DNA from: an uncultured delta proteobacterium
Lineage (GTDB): Bacteria > Myxococcota > UBA727 > VGSZ01
Direction of reading: 5' to 3'
DNA: 64,000 nucleotides
Assembly: GCA_963775425.1 (NCBI GenBank)
Contig: CAVZJB010000014.1
Location: 1 to 64,000, forward strand
Below the pieces are notes generated by a model. The model had not been told where the DNA came from. It made no database searches and saw nothing but the letters and a program-made list of their open reading frames with translations. Below, piece after piece: positions 1 to 52,661 of the stretch; within the stretch, counting starts at the first letter, position 1, and each line of letters starts with the position of its first letter. The position numbers and the translations under genes are program-made.

Positions 1-37
1 CTAGAACACCGATCAGGTTGCTGCGAGCGTTGGGACG

Positions 38-344
38 CGGCTCAGCGTGATGGGCGAGCGGGGAGCGGTCACGTGTACGGCAAGCGCGTGCGGCTCACGG
101 GCGCGGTCACGGCGAGGGGGACCGCGACCGCTGCCGTGACCGCGAGTCGCACGCGCTGCCCGTTCACGCTCCCGCTCGCCGTTCCCGCTCCCGCTGTCCG
201 TTCCTGAGCCGGACTCGTGACTGACCGGCTCTGCTTTTCGCCGCGCACCTTCCGCGCCAGCGCCTCGCGTCTCACGACGAGGAACGAGGCTGGCGCTGTC
301 ACGGAAGCCGCGCGTGGTGGGGCAGAGCCGGTCAGCCACACGAG
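38..344 (+). other. Two long imperfect hairpins (about 38-211 and 214-344) upstream of the four-helix-bundle gene
   Basis: Stems read directly: CGCGGTCACGGC/GCCGTGACCGCG, AGCGCGTGCGGCT/AGTCGCACGCGCT, CGGCTCAG/CTGAGCCG, CTGACCGGCTCTGC/GCAGAGCCGGTCAG, CTTCCG/CGGAAG, CAGCGCC/GGCGCTG. Confidence 0.75.
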
Positions 345-362
345 ACCGGCAAAGGAGCAACG

Positions 363-758
363 ATGCAGCACGACAACGAGAAGCAGAACAACGTGATCGG
401 CCCCGCCCGCTGGCAGTTCGACCACCATCGGCTGGATGCCTTCCACGTCGCTCGAGACGCCATGGTCCTCGGCGTCGGCCTGAGCAAGCGGCTGCCCCAG
501 GGCTACGGCAAGCTCAAGGACCAGCTCGAGCGCGCACTGGTCGGCGCATTCACGCAGACCACGGAGGCGTCGGCCCGCACGGACAATGATCGCCGTGCTC
601 GCTTCCGCGCCGCCCGGGCCGAGGCCGGTGAGGCGGCGGGAGTCCTCGAGGGCGTGGTCGCCCTCAAGCTCATCACCGCCGCCGAGGCGGACCCGGTCCT
701 CGCGCTCCTGTGGCGGCTATGCGCCATGCTCACCAAGCTCGCCGGCTACCACCGGTGA
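363..758 (+). CDS. Four-helix-bundle protein (23S rRNA intervening-sequence protein / Avd-like)
   Basis: 131 aa; AAGGAG RBS at 352-357. Motifs FDHHRLDAFHVA, LKDQLERA, TEAS..R and RFRAARAEAGEAAGVL match the family pattern (F+.L.v+..A; L.dQl.RA; EG..r; fl.iArgSa.E). Confidence 0.8.
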   Translation: MQHDNEKQNNVIGPARWQFDHHRLDAFHVARDAMVLGVGLSKRLPQGYGKLKDQLERALVGAFTQTTEASARTDNDRRARFRAARAEAGEAAGVLEGVVALKLITAAEADPVLALLWRLCAMLTKLAGYHR

Positions 759-765
759 CGTAGCG

Positions 766-801
766 GGCGCGCCCCGGCTACTTGCCGGGGCGCGCCTCTT
801 T
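766..801 (+). terminator. 13-bp GC stem-loop between passenger gene and transposase
   Basis: GGCGCGCCCCGGC-TACTT-GCCGGGGCGCGCC followed by TCTTT. The same stem is at 3237-3272 in copy 2. Confidence 0.55.
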
Positions 802-859
802 CGCCAAGGGCGATCGACGCGGGCCCGAGAATCTGATCCCCTCCGCGACGGAGGTGATG

Positions 860-2443
860 ATGGCAATCGAGCGATGGAAGCCGGCCGTGAAGCCGTCGGC
901 GGAGGAGGAGCGAATCCTGGCAAGGCTGAAGACACACCGGAAGCTGTTCGCGTTCTTGCGGCTTCACCGCCACGAGATTCTCGACGACGAGTTCCAGGAT
1001 CTGCTCGCCTCGAAGTACCGCGACACCGGCGCGGGCGCGCCGCCACAGCCTCCGGCGATGATGTGCATGGCGCTCCTGCTGCAGGACTACGACGGCGTGT
1101 CCGATCGCGAGGCCGTCGAGCGCACCGTCATCGACTCGCGGTGGCAGATGGTGCTCGACTGCCTCGGCGCGAAGAAGCCCGCGTTCTCGCAGGGCGGCCT
1201 CCAGCAGTTCCGCGAGCGCCTCATCGCGCACGATCTCGACGTCAAGCTCCTTGAGCGCACCGTCGAGGTCGCTCGGCGCGCGAAGAGCGTCGACTGGCGG
1301 AAGCTGCCAAAGACCCTGCGGGTGGCGATGGACTCACGCCCTTTAGTCGGCGCCGGGAAGGTTGAGGACACGTTCAACCTCCTCGGCCACGCCGCACGGA
1401 AGATCGCAGAGTGCGCCGCGACGACGACGGGCTTGTCGTTCGAGGATGTCTGCCGCCGCTCGCACGCCACGGTGTTGCTGGCGCCGAGCATCAAGGCCGG
1501 CCTCGACGTCGACTGGAGCGATCCAATCGAGAAGGCGGACGCGCTCCAGACGCTCTTCCTGCAGGTGTCCTCGCTGACCGAGTGGGTCGGGCGCATCATG
1601 GGCGGGGAGGGGCTCGACGGGCCGATCACGAAGTACCTCGAGGCGCTGCGGCAGGTTCAGGACCAGAACCTCGACGACACCGACGGCCGCGTCTCCATGC
1701 ACCAGGGCGTCGCCGCCGATCGCCGCGTATCGATCGAGGACGAGGAGATGCGCCACGGCCGCAAGAGCAAGAGCCACCGCTTCAACGGCTACAAGGAGCA
1801 CATCGCCGCCGACCTGGACAACGGCGTCATCCTCGCGTGCGCCGTGACGCCCGCGAACGTCCCCGAGGAGGAAGCCGCGCCGCTGTTGAAGGCCGACGTC
1901 GAAGCACAGGGATTCGAGATCCTCGAGCTATCCATCGACCGCGGCTACCTCAACAGCACCATCGTTGACGACGTCGAGAAGGCTGGCGGCGAGGTGCTGT
2001 GCAAGCCCTGGCCAACGCAGAACGCGAAGGGCCTGTTCACCAAGGCCGACTTCCGCATCGACCACGCCACCGGCACGATCACCTGTCCCGCAGGGGAGGT
2101 CGAGAAGTTCGAGCCCGGCGACGTCGTCGAGTTCGATCCCGACGCCTGCGGCAGATGCCGCCTTCGCGCCCAGTGCACCCACTCAGCGTCTGGGCGCGGC
2201 CGCACCATCCGCGTTGCTGACGACGAGCGCCGACAACAGCGTCTCCGCGAGCTCCGCTCGACGCCCGCCGGCCGCATGCGCCTTCGACGCCGCACCCGTG
2301 TCGAGCACCACCTCGCTCACGTTGCTGCCCGCCGCGCCCGACGGGCCCGCTACCGCGGGAGTCGCAAGAACGCCTTCGCGCTGCGCCGGACGGCCGCGCT
2401 GCAGAACCTCCAAGCGGCACAGCGCGCCATGGTGGCGTCGTGA
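860..2443 (+). CDS. IS1182-family DDE transposase
   Basis: DUF772-like N-terminus (LLLQDYDGVSDREAV), MDS, D.EMRHGRKS..FNGYK, DRGY, CPAG..CxxC..C and R..VE. GGAGG before ATG 857/860. Confidence 0.9.
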   Translation: MAIERWKPAVKPSAEEERILARLKTHRKLFAFLRLHRHEILDDEFQDLLASKYRDTGAGAPPQPPAMMCMALLLQDYDGVSDREAVERTVIDSRWQMVLDCLGAKKPAFSQGGLQQFRERLIAHDLDVKLLERTVEVARRAKSVDWRKLPKTLRVAMDSRPLVGAGKVEDTFNLLGHAARKIAECAATTTGLSFEDVCRRSHATVLLAPSIKAGLDVDWSDPIEKADALQTLFLQVSSLTEWVGRIMGGEGLDGPITKYLEALRQVQDQNLDDTDGRVSMHQGVAADRRVSIEDEEMRHGRKSKSHRFNGYKEHIAADLDNGVILACAVTPANVPEEEAAPLLKADVEAQGFEILELSIDRGYLNSTIVDDVEKAGGEVLCKPWPTQNAKGLFTKADFRIDHATGTITCPAGEVEKFEPGDVVEFDPDACGRCRLRAQCTHSASGRGRTIRVADDERRQQRLRELRSTPAGRMRLRRRTRVEHHLAHVAARRARRARYRGSRKNAFALRRTAALQNLQAAQRAMVAS

Positions 2444-2836
2444 CGCTGGTTTCAACCTGTTCGGCGTTCTAGCCCCCGGCTGGTGAGCAGGTTGCCGCGA
2501 GCGTTTGAACGCGGCTCAGGGTAATGGGCGAGCGGCGAGCGGTCACGTGTACGGCAAGCGCGTGCGGGTCACGTGCGCGGTCGCGGCGAGGGGACCGCGA
2601 CCGGTGCCGTGACCGCGAGTCGCACTCGCTGCCCGTCGACGCTCCCGCTCGCCGTTCCCGCTCCCGCTGTCCGATCTTGAGCCGGACTCGTGGCTGACCG
2701 GCTCTGCTTTTCGCCGCGCACCTTCCGCGCCAGCGCCTCGGATCTCACGACGAGGAACGAGGCCGGCGCTGTCACGGAAGCCGCGCGTGGTGGGGCAGAG
2801 CCGGTCAGCCACACGAGACCGGCAAAGGAGAGAACG

Positions 2837-3229
2837 ATGCAGCACGAGACGCAGAACACGGTGACCGGCCCCGCCCCCCGCTGGCAGTTCGATCACCACC
2901 GGCTGGATGCCTTCCACGTCGCTCGAGACGCCATGGTCCTCGGCGTCGGCCTGAGCAAGCGGCTGCCCCAGGGCTACGGCAAGCTCAAGGACCAGCTCGA
3001 GCGCGCCCTCGTCGGCGCGTTCACCCAGACCACCGAGGCGTCGGCCCGCACGGACAATGATCGCCGTGCTCGCTTCCGCGCCGCGCGGGCCGAGGCCGGT
3101 GAGGCGGCGGGAGTCCTCGAGGGCGTGGTCGCCCTCAAGCTCATCACCGCCGCCGAGGCGGACCCGGTCCTCGCGCTCCTGTGGCGGCTATGCGCCATGC
3201 TCACCAAGCTCGCCGGCTACCACCGGTGA
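2837..3229 (+). CDS. Four-helix-bundle protein, copy 2
   Basis: Protein identical to 363-758 after about residue 15; AAGGAG RBS. Confidence 0.8.
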   Translation: MQHETQNTVTGPAPRWQFDHHRLDAFHVARDAMVLGVGLSKRLPQGYGKLKDQLERALVGAFTQTTEASARTDNDRRARFRAARAEAGEAAGVLEGVVALKLITAAEADPVLALLWRLCAMLTKLAGYHR

Positions 3230-3330
3230 CGTAGCGGGCGCGCCCCGGCTAGTTGCCGGGGCGCGCCTCTTTCGCCAAGGGCAATCGACGCGGGCCCGAG
3301 AATCTGATCCCCTCCGCGACGGAGGTGATG

Positions 3331-4911
3331 ATGGCAATCGAGCGATGGAAGCCGGCCGTGAAGCCGTCGGCGGAGGAGCGAATCCTGGCAAGGCTGAAGA
3401 CACACCGGAAGCTGTTCGCGTTCTTGCGGCTTCACCGCCACGAGATTCTCGACGACGAGTTCCAGGATCTGCTCGCCTCGAAGTACCGCGACACCGGCGC
3501 GGGCGCGCCGCCACAGCCTCCGGCGATGATGTGCATGGCGCTCCTGCTGCAGGACTACGACGGCGTGTCCGATCGCGAGGCCGTCGAGCGCACCGTCATC
3601 GACTCGCGGTGGCAGATGGTGCTCGACTGCCTCGGCGCGAAGAAGCCCGCGTTCTCGCAGGGCGGCCTCCAGCAGTTCCGCGAGCGCCTCATCGCGCACG
3701 ATCTCGACGTCAAGCTCCTTGAGCGCACCGTCGAGGTCGCTCGGCGCGCGAAGAGCGTCGACTGGCGGAAGCTGCCCAAGAGCCTGCGGGTGGCGATGGA
3801 CTCACGCCCTTTAGTCGGCGCCGGGAAGGTTGAGGACACGTTCAACCTCCTCGGCCACGCCGCACGGAAGATCGCAGAGTGCGCCGCGACGACGACGGGC
3901 TTGTCGTTCGAGGATGTCTGCCGCCGCTCGCACGCCACGGTGTTGCTGGCGCCGAGCATCAAGGCCGGCCTCGACGTCGACTGGAGCGATCCAATCGAGA
4001 AGGCGGACGCGCTCCAGACGCTCTTCCTGCAGGTGTCCTCGCTGACCGAGTGGGTCGGGCGCATCATGGGCGGGGAGGGGCTCGACGGGCCGATCACGAA
4101 GTACCTCGAGGCGCTGCGGCAGGTTCAGGACCAGAACCTCGACGACACCGACGGCCGCGTCTCCATGCACCAGGGCGTCGCCGCCGATCGCCGCGTATCG
4201 ATCGAGGACGAGGAGATGCGCCACGGCCGCAAGAGCAAGAGCCACCGCTTCAACGGCTACAAGGAGCACATCGCCGCCGACCTGGACAACGGCGTCATCC
4301 TCGCGTGCGCCGTGACGCCCGCGAACGTCCCCGAGGAGGAAGCCGCGCCGCTGTTGAAGGCCGACGTCGAAGCACAGGGATTCGAGATCCTCGAGCTATC
4401 CATCGACCGCGGCTACCTCAACAGCACCATCGTTGACGACGTCGAGAAGGCTGGCGGTGAGGTGCTGTGCAAGCCCTGGCCAACGCAGAACGCGAAGGGC
4501 CTGTTCACCAAGGCCGACTTCCGCATCGACCACGCCACCGGCACGATCACCTGTCCCGCAGGGGAGGTCGAGAAGTTCGAGCCCGGCGACGTCGTCGAGT
4601 TCGATCCCGACGCCTGCGGCAAATGCCGCCTTCGCGCCCAGTGCACCCACTCAGCCTCTGGGCGCGGCCGCACCATCCGCGTTGCTGACGACGAGCGCCG
4701 ACAACAGCGTCTCCGCGAGCTCCGCTCGACGCCCGCCGGCCGCATGCGCCTTCGACGCCGCACCCGTGTCGAGCACCACCTCGCTCACGTTGCTGCCCGC
4801 CGCGCCCGACGGGCCCGCTACCGCGGGAGTCGCAAGAACGCCTTCGCGCTGCGCCGGACGGCCGCGCTGCAGAACCTCCAAGCGGCACAGCGCGCCATGG
4901 TGGCGTCGTGA
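3331..4911 (+). CDS. IS1182-family transposase, copy 2
   Basis: Nearly identical to 860-2443 (one Glu fewer, T>S, R>K). Confidence 0.9.
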   Translation: MAIERWKPAVKPSAEERILARLKTHRKLFAFLRLHRHEILDDEFQDLLASKYRDTGAGAPPQPPAMMCMALLLQDYDGVSDREAVERTVIDSRWQMVLDCLGAKKPAFSQGGLQQFRERLIAHDLDVKLLERTVEVARRAKSVDWRKLPKSLRVAMDSRPLVGAGKVEDTFNLLGHAARKIAECAATTTGLSFEDVCRRSHATVLLAPSIKAGLDVDWSDPIEKADALQTLFLQVSSLTEWVGRIMGGEGLDGPITKYLEALRQVQDQNLDDTDGRVSMHQGVAADRRVSIEDEEMRHGRKSKSHRFNGYKEHIAADLDNGVILACAVTPANVPEEEAAPLLKADVEAQGFEILELSIDRGYLNSTIVDDVEKAGGEVLCKPWPTQNAKGLFTKADFRIDHATGTITCPAGEVEKFEPGDVVEFDPDACGKCRLRAQCTHSASGRGRTIRVADDERRQQRLRELRSTPAGRMRLRRRTRVEHHLAHVAARRARRARYRGSRKNAFALRRTAALQNLQAAQRAMVAS

Positions 4912-4936
4912 CGCTGGTTTCAACCTGTTCGGCGTT

Positions 4937-6953
4937 CTAGCAGCCTGCGGCAAAGTTGAACCCTGCGCGTCGTTCAAGCGGGGCCGGCGTCCCGTGCGGC
5001 GTCGGGGCACGCCGATGGCGGCACAGCGCGAGCGCACGTCGTCGACGACGCCGACCGCTGGCGCCGGTGGGGCTCAGGAATTGGTCGAGGCCGCGGCCTA
5101 CGCCGCCCGCTGCTGCTCCACAGGTGCCGCAAGCCGTCTCGCGAGCAGGCTGAGATTGCAGCGCCCTGCGATCAGGTGGGCCTGCATGTGCGCCGCGCGA
5201 AGGCCCCACGCCCGCGCCGTGCGCGCACCGTGTCGCACGAGCTGGTTCACGAGGCGCTCCGTCTGTGTACGCGTCCTGTACGCCTCGCGCGTCGCGGGCT
5301 CCGCCCACGCGTCGCGTGCCTCGCGGAGCTCCTTCTCGAAGGGGTGGAGGAGCAGACGGTGCCCGCCGGTTTGCTTGCCGCGGCACTGCGCCCTCATTGG
5401 GCATTGCGAGCAGACCTCGTTGCTCCACTTGAACACCGGAAGGTGCGTTCCCGCGTCGCTGCTCCACGTCGTGTACGTCGTGCTCGCCGGCTTTCCGGCG
5501 GGGCAGGTCACGACGTTGTTGTCGAAGTCGACGTCGAAGTCCTTCCGGCTCAATCGGCCGTCTTGGACGCTCACGGGCGGGGGCGGCGCGATGATCTGAA
5601 GGCCGAGTTTTTCTCGGACCCGATGTCGAAGCTCGGCCGAGCCGTAGGCTGTATCGCCGAGGATGCACTCGATCTCGCCGTACAGCTTCTTTGCCCGCGC
5701 AAAGAGGCGATGCGCGGGGACATTGTCGTGCACGTTGCCAGATGTCACGGCCACCGAGGCAATGACGCCACTGACGACGTCGCCGACGAGATGAAGCTTG
5801 AAGCCATCGAAGGTCGCGCTCTTCGACTTGCGTCCATGCCGCGCCTTGGGGTCCGTCAAGCTGATGAGACGATCGCGCGCAACTCGCTCAGCGATCGTCA
5901 GGCGCCCTTTCGCGTCGGTCTCAAGGTCAGACTCGACGGCGCGCAGAACATGGGCGCATCGATGGAGAAGCCCTTTGCGGTGCCCGGAGGCGACGTCCGT
6001 GATGTTGCCGCGAATGAACTCGACGACGCGGAGCGCGCCGTGAGCCAGGGTGTCGACGACGTTCGCGCGCGCGTCGTCATCGGACCAGTCAACTCGGAAC
6101 GCGCCCTTGGTGCTCTTCGCGAGGACCCACGGCGCTTCCCACCGCTCCGCGACCGTGGCGACGGGCGTGTTCGTGAGCTTCGCCCAGCGCTTCGCGAGCC
6201 CTCGAACACCGTCGCCGAGCAGCTCGATCGTGTCGAGGACGGCGCCGTAGGCCCACATCGGAGTGCTGTCCGTCGCCCAAGTTGGCTTCGCGACGACGCC
6301 GTTTTCGACGCAAAGACGAACGAGATGCTCGTGCAGGAGCAGGTACCTCGGGAGATGAAGCTCAGGGTGGCGGCCGCGGAGAAAAGCTTCGAATCGGCGG
6401 ACGGTTCTCTCGTCCGGTGTTGCGGCACCGATCTGAAGATCCATCGCCGCGAGCCACCTCGTGTCGTGCTGCGCGCGACGAGCACACGCCCGTCGGCTCA
6501 TCCCCTCGTCCTCCCAGCGCAACAGCAGCATGGCCGCCAACGAGCGAACGGGCCAGGCTCGTCGTCCTCGACGACCCTCGCCGGCCCAGCCGTCGAAGAT
6601 CCACGACGGGAACAGCATGGAAGCGAAGCGCGAGAGGATCCAAGGCAGCTCGCCGACGACGAGACAGCTGGGGTCCGCGAACGCGGGACTGAAGATCGAG
6701 CGCTGAGCAATGCGGAGCTGAGGCATCGAAAACCTCGCCGCCCTTGCCAACGCAGTCGTAGTGGATCAGCCTGCGCGGGACGTCGGGCGCGTTGGTCGTG
6801 TGTTGTGTCGCAACTCCACAACGATCACCGATTCCCGACGTCGTCAATTGCCCTCGTCACCAGCGACGCACCCTCGCAGGCAGCACCGCGGAACCCACCG
6901 CCGCGTAACGGATCGATTTCATTGACGAAACGAATTTCGCCGCAGGCTGCTAG
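4937..6953 (-). mobile_element. Third, distinct IS1182-like element
   Basis: Inverted repeats CTAGCAGCCTGCGGCAAAGTT (4937-4957) and AATTTCGCCGCAGGCTGCTAG (6933-6953) match 19/21 and enclose one transposase. Confidence 0.85.
5098..6726 (-). CDS. IS1182-family DDE transposase
   Basis: TDST, DPKARHGRKS..FDGFK, GDTAYG, CPAG..CSQC..C and YR.R.QTER motifs. Start is either ATG 6726 or TTG 6750. Confidence 0.88.
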   Translation of the reverse strand: MPQLRIAQRSIFSPAFADPSCLVVGELPWILSRFASMLFPSWIFDGWAGEGRRGRRAWPVRSLAAMLLLRWEDEGMSRRACARRAQHDTRWLAAMDLQIGAATPDERTVRRFEAFLRGRHPELHLPRYLLLHEHLVRLCVENGVVAKPTWATDSTPMWAYGAVLDTIELLGDGVRGLAKRWAKLTNTPVATVAERWEAPWVLAKSTKGAFRVDWSDDDARANVVDTLAHGALRVVEFIRGNITDVASGHRKGLLHRCAHVLRAVESDLETDAKGRLTIAERVARDRLISLTDPKARHGRKSKSATFDGFKLHLVGDVVSGVIASVAVTSGNVHDNVPAHRLFARAKKLYGEIECILGDTAYGSAELRHRVREKLGLQIIAPPPPVSVQDGRLSRKDFDVDFDNNVVTCPAGKPASTTYTTWSSDAGTHLPVFKWSNEVCSQCPMRAQCRGKQTGGHRLLLHPFEKELREARDAWAEPATREAYRTRTQTERLVNQLVRHGARTARAWGLRAAHMQAHLIAGRCNLSLLARRLAAPVEQQRAA

Positions 6954-7001
6954 GCGACGTCACGGGGCGCGCCCCTATGGCGCGCCCGTGTGGCGCGGGG
7001 T

Positions 7002-7907
7002 TCACGGTGAGCAGAGCAGCAGCGTCGTCGTCCCTCGGTCGTCGGGGGTAGCGACGCTGCGCGAGGAGCAATTGGGGAGGGCGCCGCCGCAGTCCTCGTT
7101 GCCGTTGCAGACGCGGGAGCAGCCCTGGGGGGTGCACAGCCCGCTTTGGCAGTCGGTCTCGACGCTGCATGCGTCGCCGAGGTCGCCGGCGCCGGCGGCG
7201 ACCTCGCAGATGGCGTCGAAGGCGTTGGTGGTGAGGTTGCCGTTGTAGGTGCACACGCGGTCCTGCGGACAGCTCGCGTCGTCGACGCAAGAGGGCACGC
7301 ACACGGACAGGAGGGTATCGGGCGGACCGAACGGGTACGCGGTGCACGTCTCACCGCTGCCGCAGTCGGCGGCGCTGTCGGCGCAGACCTCGCTGCAGGC
7401 GTCGGCGCGCGGCGTACAGAAGCCGCTCGCGCACGTGTCGCCGCTGTTGCACAGGGAGCCGCGCGCGTCCCCGGCGACGGCGGCGACGCAATAGGCGCGC
7501 ACGGCGTCGCTCTCGGCCCTGAGGTCGGAGCACACGTCGCCGCCACAGTCGCGGGACGACGAGCAAACGACGTCACCCTCGCCCTCGCCCTCGCCCTCGC
7601 CCTCCCCCTCGCCCTCGCCCTCGCCCTCGCCCTCCCCCTCCCCCTCGCCCTCGCCGTCACCCTCGCCCTCGCCCTCGCCCTCGCCCTCGCCCTCGCCCTC
7701 GCCCTCGCCCTCGCCCTCGCCCTCGCCCTCACCCTCGCCCTCGCCTTCGCCCTGGTCGCTGGCGCACGCGCCGGACGAGAGATCGCAGGCCTCGCCGGCT
7801 GGGCAATCGGCATCGTTCTGGCACGTGTAGTACCCGGTGACGCCGCAGGCGTCGCACGACGTCGCGAGGGCGAGCGCGAGGATGGCGAGAGCGGCGAGCC
7901 GTGTCAT
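7002..7907 (-). CDS. Cys-rich secreted/lipoprotein with a long (GE)n tract
   Basis: Signal peptide ending LATSC, about 30 GE units, many Cx4-5C motifs. Confidence 0.75.
   Translation of the reverse strand: MTRLAALAILALALATSCDACGVTGYYTCQNDADCPAGEACDLSSGACASDQGEGEGEGEGEGEGEGEGEGEGEGEGEGEGEGDGEGEGEGEGEGEGEGEGEGEGEGEGEGDVVCSSSRDCGGDVCSDLRAESDAVRAYCVAAVAGDARGSLCNSGDTCASGFCTPRADACSEVCADSAADCGSGETCTAYPFGPPDTLLSVCVPSCVDDASCPQDRVCTYNGNLTTNAFDAICEVAAGAGDLGDACSVETDCQSGLCTPQGCSRVCNGNEDCGGALPNCSSRSVATPDDRGTTTLLLCSP
7574..7752. repeat. Hexamer repeat encoding (Gly-Glu)n
   Basis: (CCCTCG)n with variants. Similar tracts at about 12650-12720, 12877-12930, 13717-13783, 20355-20530, 36932-37047 and 56003-56030. 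Confidence 0.9.
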
Positions 7908-7981
7908 GGGCGGAGCGTAACGCGTCTGCGTCTCGTTCGAGGACAGCACGGCATCAAGCCCAAGCAAAAGCGCGGCGGAGG

Positions 7982-8047
7982 CCGCCACCGAAGTCGTCGC
8001 ACTCGAAGGCCCCAGAGAACCCCGAGGAGCGACGACTTCGAAGGCGG
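7982..8047. other. Intergenic long hairpin
   Basis: CGAAGTCGTCGC (7989-8000) pairs with GCGACGACTTCG (8029-8040), downstream of the M48 gene. Confidence 0.45.
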
Positions 8048-52375: not shown

Positions 52376-52661
52376 TGCACGTGCGCGGTCGCGGGAGCGC
52401 TCGCGTGTACGGGGAGCGAGTGGGTGACACGTGCGCGGTCGCGGGAGCGCTCGCGTGTACCGCGGTCGCGTGAACGGGGAGCGACTGCGTGACACGTGCG
52501 CGGTCGCGGGAGCGGTCACGTGAACGGGGAGCGACTGGGTGACACGGGCGCGGTCGCGGGAGCGCTCGCGTGAATGTGCCCGCTCCTCGGCCGTGTCCGT
52601 GAACGTGTCACCCACTCGCTCCCCCTCACGTTCCCGCTCCCCGCTCCCGCTCCCCGCTCCC
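52376..52661. repeat. Intergenic array of about 50-bp direct repeats with an inverted arm
   Basis: CACG(T/G)GCGCGGTCGCGGGAGCG occurs four times. 52411-52432 is a perfect 22-bp inverted repeat of 52603-52624. Confidence 0.85.

Follow-up and report, generated by a model that had tools for sequence, protein, structure and literature searches.

A hairpin and four-helix-bundle module as probable cargo of an IS1182-family insertion sequence in a member of the Myxococcota

The element at the start of the contig

The DNA considered here (the window) covers the initial 64 kb of one contig, CAVZJB010000014.1 (C14), in the genome assembly of an uncultured member of the Myxococcota (GCA_963775425.1, hereafter G000), which comprises 8.26 Mb in 18 contigs and has a GC content of 72 %. 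It starts with an insertion sequence (IS) of the IS1182 family that holds, inside its terminal inverted repeats (IRs), two long hairpins and a gene for a small protein with a predicted four-helix-bundle (4HB) fold in addition to a transposase gene. It is rather likely that this element is a transporter IS (tIS), that is, an IS1182-family IS of about 1.7 kb that carries a self-contained module of about 0.77 kb as cargo.

Copy 1 of the element covers 2471 bp (window 1-2471) and consists, from left to right, of the left IR, hairpin 1, hairpin 2, the 4HB gene, a stem-loop, the transposase gene, and the right IR (Table 1). The first 4 nt of the left IR, CTAG, form the target or duplication motif that abutting elements have in common. 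Hairpin 2 stops just 5' of AAAGGAG, the Shine-Dalgarno sequence of the 4HB gene, and contains the conserved inner motif GCGCAC..CGCGCC..(stem)..GTCACG..GCGC. Folding of positions 1-380 gave -239 kcal/mol (z -9.5), a stability that was reached by none of 100 shuffled sequences. The stem-loop behind the 4HB gene is likely a transcription terminator or insulator. It fails the T-run rule of a terminator scan of positions 1-2600, and a promoter consensus scan of the same region detected no promoter-like site, both scans being uninformative at 72 % GC. In the homologous module of another locus (L055), the stem is followed by TTTTT.

The transposase of copy 1 scores 299.2 bits with the IS1182 model NF033551 (curated cut-off 270) and has matches above the cut-off to PF05598 (DUF772), PF01609 (DDE_Tnp_1), and PF13751 (DDE_Tnp_1_6). 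Among the genes in positions 1-8000, family matches were obtained for the two 4HB genes and three transposases only. A permissive Rfam scan of positions 1-7000 yielded no rRNA and no known RNA family; two sub-threshold matches to ctRNA_pGA1 both lie over stem-loops. With a 4HB gene and two hairpins inside its IRs, the element goes beyond the strict definition of an IS, which allows for its own transposition functions only. A first-pass annotation of the same DNA had drawn this layout (terminal IRs pairing at 18 of 20 positions, hairpins, a 131-aa gene, a stem-loop, a transposase, and a duplication of the whole), and each part was recovered at its place. The assignment of the transposase to IS1182 and the location of the cassette between the IRs hold as well.

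Table 1. Coordinates of the elements and their parts at the start of the window
Feature	Position	Strand	Remarks
Left terminal IR, copy 1	1..20	+	CTAGAACACCGATCAGGTTG; pairs with 2452-2471 at 18/20 positions
Hairpin 1 (type A), copy 1	43..196	none	arms 56-106/134-184, 76 % complementary
Hairpin 2 (type B), copy 1	202..356	none	arms 217-264/292-339
4HB (IVP/Avd-like) gene, copy 1	363..758	+	131 aa
Stem-loop, copy 1	766..796	+	perfect 13-bp GC stem-loop, 3' of the 4HB stop codon
GATCGAC box of the canonical transposase 5' leader	812..818	+	based on a comparison of 25 leaders
Transposase gene, copy 1	857..2443	+	IS1182-family DDE, 528 aa from ATG 857
Right terminal IR, copy 1	2452..2471	+	CAACCTGTTCGGCGTTCTAG
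Variant left end, copy 2	2468..2493	+	CTAG + CCCCCGGCTGGTGAGCAGGTTG; CTAG common with the end of copy 1
Hairpins 1 and 2, copy 2	2517..2829	none	arms 2530-2580/2607-2657 and 2690-2737/2765-2812
4HB gene, copy 2	2837..3229	+	130 aa
Stem-loop, copy 2	3237..3267	+	
Transposase gene, copy 2	3328..4911	+	527 aa
Right terminal IR, copy 2	4921..4940	+	
Third IS1182-like element	4937..6953	-	21-nt IRs, cargo-free; abuts copy 2, common CTAG

A distinct subfamily of four-helix-bundle proteins

The identification of the small open reading frame (ORF) as a 4HB gene in the first-pass annotation is borne out by one profile and missed by another. Both copies score 26.8 bits with TIGR02436 (curated cut-off 24); with PF05635 (23S_rRNA_IVP), the window proteins score 25.6 and 25.7 bits (E 1.5e-5), which is below the gathering score of 33.8. 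Five of the seven subfamily relatives scanned do pass PF05635, with 42.2, 38.7, 46.8, 38.9, and 35.4 bits, while two fail it (L070, 30.8 bits; L068, 30.1 bits). Structure prediction and Foldseek agree with the assignment: the AlphaFold model (pLDDT 92.5) has helices at residues 25-41, 49-70, 74-100, and 106-126, and the template modelling (TM) scores, normalised to the query, are 0.77-0.79 for 2gsc, 0.71 for 2rld, and 0.68-0.71 for Avd. A profile of 46 homologues matched the solved protein 2gsc with an E value of 1.8e-5. The subfamily is distinct and well conserved, with the motifs FDHHRLDA, ARAEAGEAA, and LWRLCAML.

Relatives of the transposase without the module

A survey of the transposase covered 401 Myxococcota genomes. 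A transposase 50-67 % identical to that of the window was found in 56 of these, G000 included (55 others); the number includes the unpublished genome G195, which was used for this count only. Twenty-nine related loci (54-67 % identity) were examined. Both IRs were found at 25 of them; these elements have lengths of 1661-1756 bp, with a distance of 80-121 nt from the left IR to the start codon. At the remaining four, no left IR was found within five mismatches. The 4HB gene is absent from all 29 loci. The closest relative, with 67 % identity, is in G008, a genome of the same family but of a different genus; its IRs are the same, and its start codon follows the left IR after only about 80 nt. 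A GATCGAC box is common to the leaders of the cargo-free relatives, and homology with the window resumes near position 805. The 25 cargo-free leaders, together with the presence of GATCGAC at 812-818, therefore indicate an insert of about 0.77 kb, from about position 30 to about position 805, in the window element.

The module is cargo here and, in this IS lineage, no part of the transposition machinery. The first-pass annotation had favoured a machine composed of hairpins, an Avd-like protein, and a DDE transposase, in which the small protein would aid transposition; the lack of a 4HB gene at 29 of 29 related loci speaks against it. The annotation had also raised the question of whether the transposase always travels with the cassette, which the 25 relatives with a short leader and no cassette answer in the negative. 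Its alternative, in which a 4HB cassette hitch-hikes on the IS, is the best fit, both to these relatives and to the 41 modules described below, none of which has an IS1182-type transposase.

Free-standing modules in Polyangia

A large protein collection contains 94 homologues of the 4HB protein, mostly 50-82 % identical to it and mostly encoded on short metagenome contigs. A search of genome contigs with the single protein detected no related loci; an alignment-based scan gave 40 loci in metagenome-assembled genomes (MAGs) of Myxococcota, and a metagenome scan added one contig, which brings the total to 41. By tblastn, no IS1182-type transposase was found at any of these 41 loci with close 4HB relatives. 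The same was seen for distant 4HB paralogues (29-45 % identity) of related genomes, which were set aside as members of other subfamilies: none of 21 loci in other genomes has an IS1182 transposase within 1.5 kb. Most modules stand alone, and their neighbours are unrelated housekeeping genes; the module at L058:3008-5087, for example, is located in the clpP-clpX spacer of a tig-clpP-clpX cluster. The neighbour scans, in which length and GC3 filters (GC content at third codon positions) were applied so that small or degraded genes may escape, showed no recombinase or transposase consistently near the modules.

Within genomes the repeat unit is about 0.6-0.9 kb long and consists of 200-400 nt of upstream sequence, the ORF, and about 100 nt downstream. 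The upstream region folds into a hairpin of 130-170 nt (z <= -3) at 15 of 23 loci, and at several loci the 3' arm of this hairpin takes in the Shine-Dalgarno sequence. Alignment of 17 homologous hairpins revealed a common structure of 27 pairs, in which 90.6 % of the cells are paired, compared with 35-49 % when the partners are slid. Compensatory changes affect 17 of the 27 pairs (6-10 in the slid controls), and the covariation score is 0.437, against at most 0.104 with slid partners; none of 500 shuffles reached the observed values. The inner part has the order GCGCAC, variable helix, CGCGCC, 7-bp helix, loop, GTCA(C/T)G, variable helix, TGCGC. The structured element that the first-pass annotation had noticed beside the ORF is thus a conserved and covarying hairpin. 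Many loci have a second, more distal long hairpin of short tandem repeats that resembles hairpin 1 of the window, and the whole 0.77-kb insert therefore represents one module type. The insert is a member of a dispersed, multi-copy family of hairpin-4HB cassettes in Polyangia.

A syntenic spacer between convergent genes in two Labilithrix MAGs measures 1067 nt with the module and about 45 nt without it. The filled and empty sites are too diverged for the borders to be defined at the base level. Such a presence/absence polymorphism at an intergenic site is what one would see if the module were a nested mobile element that moves by a route of its own, for example through hairpin-directed recombination or mobilisation in trans, and had entered the leader of the IS as a safe site. 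The occurrence of the module in multiple copies and as decayed fragments in several genomes would fit as well, and so would the covariation of its hairpin without strand bias, which is compatible with a hairpin at the DNA level, the nested inverted repeats of about 150 nt around the module at L079, and the permuted order of gene and hairpin in the genome G401 (see below). We nevertheless hold this explanation to be improbable. No recombinase or transposase is consistently found nearby, and for free-standing copies neither terminal repeats nor target duplications could be defined. The IR motif of IS1182 was not found within four mismatches at the borders of free-standing modules, apart from three scattered, chance-like hits. 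Independent movement would, moreover, be compatible with the cargo reading, since the module travels as IS cargo either way.

Some further arrangements were observed. In a Nannocystis MAG (L079:1387-2210), the module is bracketed by the nested inverted repeats mentioned above (1387-1546 vs 2099-2210), a stem-around-ORF layout that recalls rRNA intervening sequences; an ISAs1-like transposase region (281-1268) with 68 % nucleotide identity to L065 lies just upstream. Another genome of the same phylum (G040) contains 15 copies, about 77 % identical, of a module of about 1 kb that consists of two convergent, distantly related 4HB genes (L023, L028, L031, L032, L035, and L037-L046). Several of these are at contig ends, and the one at L032 adjoins a toxin-antitoxin-like gene pair.

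The module inside other insertion sequences

In the MAG G401, the same 4HB subfamily is enclosed by the 20-nt IRs of a 1600-bp element of the IS5 family (L086:3041-4640). The transposase is of the two-ORF type (DUF4096 and DDE_Tnp_1/DDE_Tnp_1_2), and, in the pieces that align, the 4HB sequence has 55-60 % amino acid identity with the window protein. Module and transposase are oriented divergently; a type A hairpin of about 190 nt (z -9.85) is located 3' of the 4HB gene, between it and the right IR, and a type B hairpin is absent. The element is present in four full copies with 99-100 % identity, in four internally deleted copies that resemble miniature inverted-repeat transposable elements (MITEs), and in more than a dozen right-end fragments. 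Two full copies (L086, L087) and one deleted derivative (L091), which lie in different surroundings, are flanked by TAA on both sides; of the other full copies, L149 has TTA and L148 is ambiguous (TTA/TAA). A common 2-nt deletion frameshifts the 4HB gene in all four full copies, and the G401 IS has therefore transposed repeatedly without a 4HB protein encoded in cis.

Retrotransposition as the origin of the 5'-truncated copies in G401 was ruled out, as these copies end at the right IR of the IS. An ORF with an RVT_1 domain is present at L088:5257-6579, between the frameshifted 4HB gene and the right IR of the IS (6749). It looks like a later insertion because of this location, and probably represents a group II intron that entered a decayed element, not part of a diversity-generating retroelement (DGR).

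At L065, a transposase that we take, from its domain architecture, to be ISAs1-like faces a hairpin-4HB module in convergent orientation, both being enclosed by 17-nt IRs. This is possibly a third IS with the module as cargo; it is a single copy in its genome, and its ends are putative. The position and orientation of the module relative to the transposase differ in all three IS contexts (window, G401, and L065), as expected for cargo. In both well-defined cases, the window and G401, a long hairpin is located within about 20-40 nt of one IR.

Ends and fragments of the element in G000

About 28 other places in G000 match the left 60-260 nt of the element (for example C16:449645-449760, C11:726414-726514, and window 52393-52654), and 13 of the 23 fragments inspected start with the left IR. 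Just one dispersed place matches the right 200 nt. The left IR and/or hairpin 1 thus form a repeat that is scattered through G000 and whose inner break points vary; hairpin 1 may also be described as a MITE core. Some MITE-like derivatives run from the left IR and hairpin 1 directly into the right IR (about C5:62128 and C8:156283-156347), and the one on C8 has CTAA on both flanks. Two larger, decayed copies were found: at C8:404246-404495, the left IR and hairpin 1 are followed by the 3' end of the 4HB gene with its stem-loop, and at C13:148084-148517, the hairpins are joined to the transposase leader. Together with the small derivatives, these decayed copies identify the left IR upstream of the hairpins as the functional end, with the cassette inside. 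Since the two decayed copies show the same order, the layout is supported separately from the tandem. The evidence for movement as a unit in G000 consists of the two adjacent copies and the decayed copy on C8.

In G008, the cargo-free relative has its insertion site at the terminal CTAG of an element of about 150 nt with GGCTCGGACCCCAAAGTTTTGGGGT inverted repeats (L048:2620-2790), which is apparently another MITE.

Selection on the cargo gene and mosaic structure of the element

Between the two window copies, 70 columns of the alignment are different, counting substitutions as well as indel positions. Divergence is 11.5 % in positions 1-200, drops to about 5 % in 201-758, and is lowest, at 0.5 %, in the transposase gene. 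In the 116-codon core of the 4HB gene, all eight substitutions are synonymous and at third codon positions, which gives a dN of 0 and a dS of 0.092 (nonsynonymous and synonymous substitutions per site; S 92.2, N 255.8 sites). The chance of eight random hits all falling on synonymous sites is about 2e-5 by our own arithmetic. The 4HB proteins are identical from RWQFDHH on, and variation is confined to the first 15 or so residues, where in-frame indels and replacements occur. In the truncated third 4HB copy on contig C8, six of eight coding substitutions are at third positions. As the first-pass annotation had suspected from the synonymous differences in the core of the passenger gene, the cargo gene is therefore kept intact by purifying selection in G000.

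The transposase genes of the two copies differ by one codon indel, two nonsynonymous, and three synonymous changes (dS 0.0078, dN 0.0017). Because dS is 0.092 in the cargo gene and 0.0078 in the transposase gene, the element is a mosaic whose two halves, left and right, differ in their history as a result of gene conversion or exchange. No compensatory changes were seen in hairpin 1 in the list of differences between the two window copies.

Purifying selection on a 4HB gene that resides on an IS would also be expected of a co-opted accessory system, in which hairpins and 4HB protein take part in transposition or regulate it, as Avd supports the reverse transcriptase of DGRs. The protein could, for example, bind the subterminal hairpin, help synapsis, or damp expression of the transposase, and would have been recruited for the fitness of the IS. 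The occurrence of the module inside the IRs of IS1182-type, IS5-family, and possibly ISAs1-like elements, the short distance between the long hairpin and one IR, and the over-representation of the hairpin-bearing end as solo or MITE-like pieces in both G000 and G401 all fit such a role. Yet none of the 29 close relatives of the transposase carries the module, none of the 41 relatives of the 4HB gene lies beside an IS1182-type transposase and most are alone, and orientation and position relative to the transposase are different in every case. The recently active element of G401, moreover, has a frameshifted 4HB gene in every full copy. An accessory system is for these reasons unlikely.

The second copy, the third element, and the tandem arrangement

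The whole unit is repeated at 2468-4940 with 98 % identity, and these two are the only full copies in the G000 assembly. The left end of copy 2 is 6 nt longer than the canonical one (CTAGCCCCCGGCTGGTGAGCAGGTTG); a similar variant left end is present at C12:376490. The third element encodes a transposase of 550 aa (6750..5098) that is 30 % identical to the other two and scores 216 bits with NF033551, below the cut-off of 270. The three elements are stacked end to end with a single CTAG between neighbours. IS5-like elements have a preference for CTAG as target, and the stacking is expected if the elements use CTAG as their target and restore it on either side. The contig starts at base 1 of copy 1, so that no left flank of this copy is available in which a target duplication could be read.

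Public sequencing data were available as Logan contigs of three soil-metagenome runs from one study, possibly of the source sample. None of these contigs bridges 2471/2472, and the tandem therefore has the present assembly as its only source; nor does any of them link the 4HB gene to the transposase. In run X1, one contig has copy-2-type sequence attached to a canonical left IR with a different flank, and another public contig combines variants of copy 1 with variants of copy 2. Such contigs, and the start of the element at the very first base of C14, might point to an assembly artefact, the tandem or even the linkage of cassette and transposase being a mis-join of repeats or strain variants at the contig end. 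Misassembly had been named in the first-pass annotation as a possible cause of the arrangement; the tandem junction has gained no confirmation from the public contigs, while contigs of X1 exactly span the transitions from the left IR to hairpin 1 and from hairpin 2 to the start of the 4HB gene. Two copies that differ at 70 columns retain the same internal order, and the decayed copies provide independent linkage: that on C8 has the left IR and hairpin 1 together with the 3' end of the 4HB gene, and that on C13 the hairpins together with the transposase leader. An artefact could remove the tandem only, not the cargo-bearing IS, and is very improbable.

The different flank in run X1 belongs to a separate 43-copy repeat of G000 (for example C6:77009-77029), which ends in GGCGGTGGCGACGTTGTCTAG. 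It directly adjoins the copy-2-type IS in this run and is another CTAG-ended insertion site.

How the module may travel

For a transporter IS, the following course of events is proposed. The DDE transposase would cut at the IRs and insert the element into CTAG/CTAR with a 4-bp duplication, and the module would be carried along. The stem-loop at 766-796 would insulate the transposase gene from the cassette transcript. By analogy with the nucleic-acid-binding barrel of Avd, the 4HB protein may bind its own adjacent hairpin, which could result in autoregulation or in a small nucleoprotein particle. The benefit would be to the cassette or the host, not to the transposase.

Several observations weigh against the interpretation of the module as plain cargo. 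The only intact genes of this 4HB subfamily in G000 are the two on the IS, and the fates of IS and cassette are for that reason linked in this genome. The only intact 4HB gene of G401 (L061) is located outside the full elements and could supply its product in trans. Hairpin-bearing IS ends are in strong excess as solo fragments in both genomes, which plain cargo does not predict, and the unequal divergence of cargo and transposase between the window copies is a further feature that it does not explain. At least two and perhaps three unrelated DDE elements have the same type of cassette between their IRs, which is more than a single accident and could indicate a functional tie. With respect to the proposed binding partner, G-U pairs in hairpin 2 number 69 on the plus strand and 65 on the minus strand, and the plus strand is the more stable one in 7 of 17 hairpins and the minus strand in 10; because of this lack of strand bias, a role of the hairpin at the RNA level remains only a proposal.

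Owing to the repeated capture, the excess of solo hairpin ends, and the unequal divergence of cargo and transposase, a module that acts in transposition or is itself mobile retains a small probability. One form that this could take, and which we put forward tentatively, is that of a small selfish cassette functionally tied to DDE ISs, the protein of which would bind the subterminal hairpin, as RNA or as extruded DNA, and thereby tune transposition or exploit the transposase. This would explain the carriage by unrelated ISs, the solo and MITE-like end copies, and the scattered free-standing copies in Polyangia.

Comparison with known systems

According to passages in PMC3129680, tISs are an accepted category of ISs with passenger genes unrelated to transposition. 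The window element resembles them in having one transposase gene and an extra gene inside one pair of IRs, and in the MITE-like and partial derivatives present in the same genome; it differs in its cargo, a conserved module of hairpin(s) and 4HB gene. In the open-access papers and preprints searched, no report was found of an IS carrying a 4HB or intervening-sequence protein (IVP) gene or such a module, nor are we aware of any IS1182-family tIS for which such cargo has been described. What is new here is the type of cargo, a conserved hairpin-4HB cassette, which is added to the tISs.

With the canonical IS1182 elements of Myxococcota, the window element has in common the IR family (CTAGARCNCCGATCAGGTTR...), the CTAG ends, the GATCGAC box, and a transposase with 50-67 % identity. 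The canonical elements are 1661-1756 bp long, with a leader of 80-121 nt and no second gene, whereas the window element measures 2471 bp. The IS5-family tIS of G401 has the same 4HB subfamily, a type A hairpin near one IR, and MITE-like and one-ended derivatives; it is set apart by its two-ORF transposase, the hairpin after the gene, and the frameshift in its four full copies.

The 4HB family of 23S intervening sequences (IVSs) and Avd is very common in bacterial genomes, and in the classical IVS layout a stem surrounds the ORF. The IVS proteins (2gsc, which is Xcc0516, and 2rld, which is BT_0352 of the "S23 ribosomal protein" family) have the same fold as the window protein (TM 0.71-0.79 normalised to the query), and in both cases the small ORF is associated with a long stem and with selfish or inserted DNA. 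The window module, in contrast, lies outside any rRNA gene, and its hairpins are upstream of the ORF and do not bracket it. Avd (4dwl, 8ub7) is likewise a four-helix bundle (TM 0.68-0.71), the gene of which is located beside a structured nucleic acid on a mobile element; sequence identity is 11-12 %, and the partner enzyme would here be a DDE transposase. Unlike in a DGR, no reverse transcriptase is among the family matches in 1-8000, and no repeat resembling a template/variable repeat pair (TR/VR) is in the repeat listing. The solved IVP/Avd relatives have five chains, A-E, a homopentameric barrel being a feature of the known fold family. Passages in PMC10053308 link this family to 23S intervening sequences and treat Avd, PF05635, and 2GSC as homologous.

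Other features of the window

The minus strand encodes, at 7002-7988, a cysteine-rich secreted protein in which a 6-nt tandem repeat gives rise to a long run of (Gly-Glu)n. The repeat that codes for this run (7531-7800) comprises 14 registers of a 90-nt family.

Significance

A subfamily of 4HB proteins has been defined together with a covarying hairpin as a dispersed cassette that has been captured by at least two unrelated DDE transposons. The protein and its hairpin, with or without the transposase, provide a concrete and testable system for the study of binding and of effects on mobile DNA. For IS biology, they raise the question of why the hairpin-bearing end multiplies alone. In genome annotation, IS1182-like elements of Polyangia that exceed the usual length by about 0.8 kb should not be split into two independent features. 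If the cassette should prove to be a selfish one tied to DDE ISs, this would be the first role of the IVP/Avd-like family outside retroelements.

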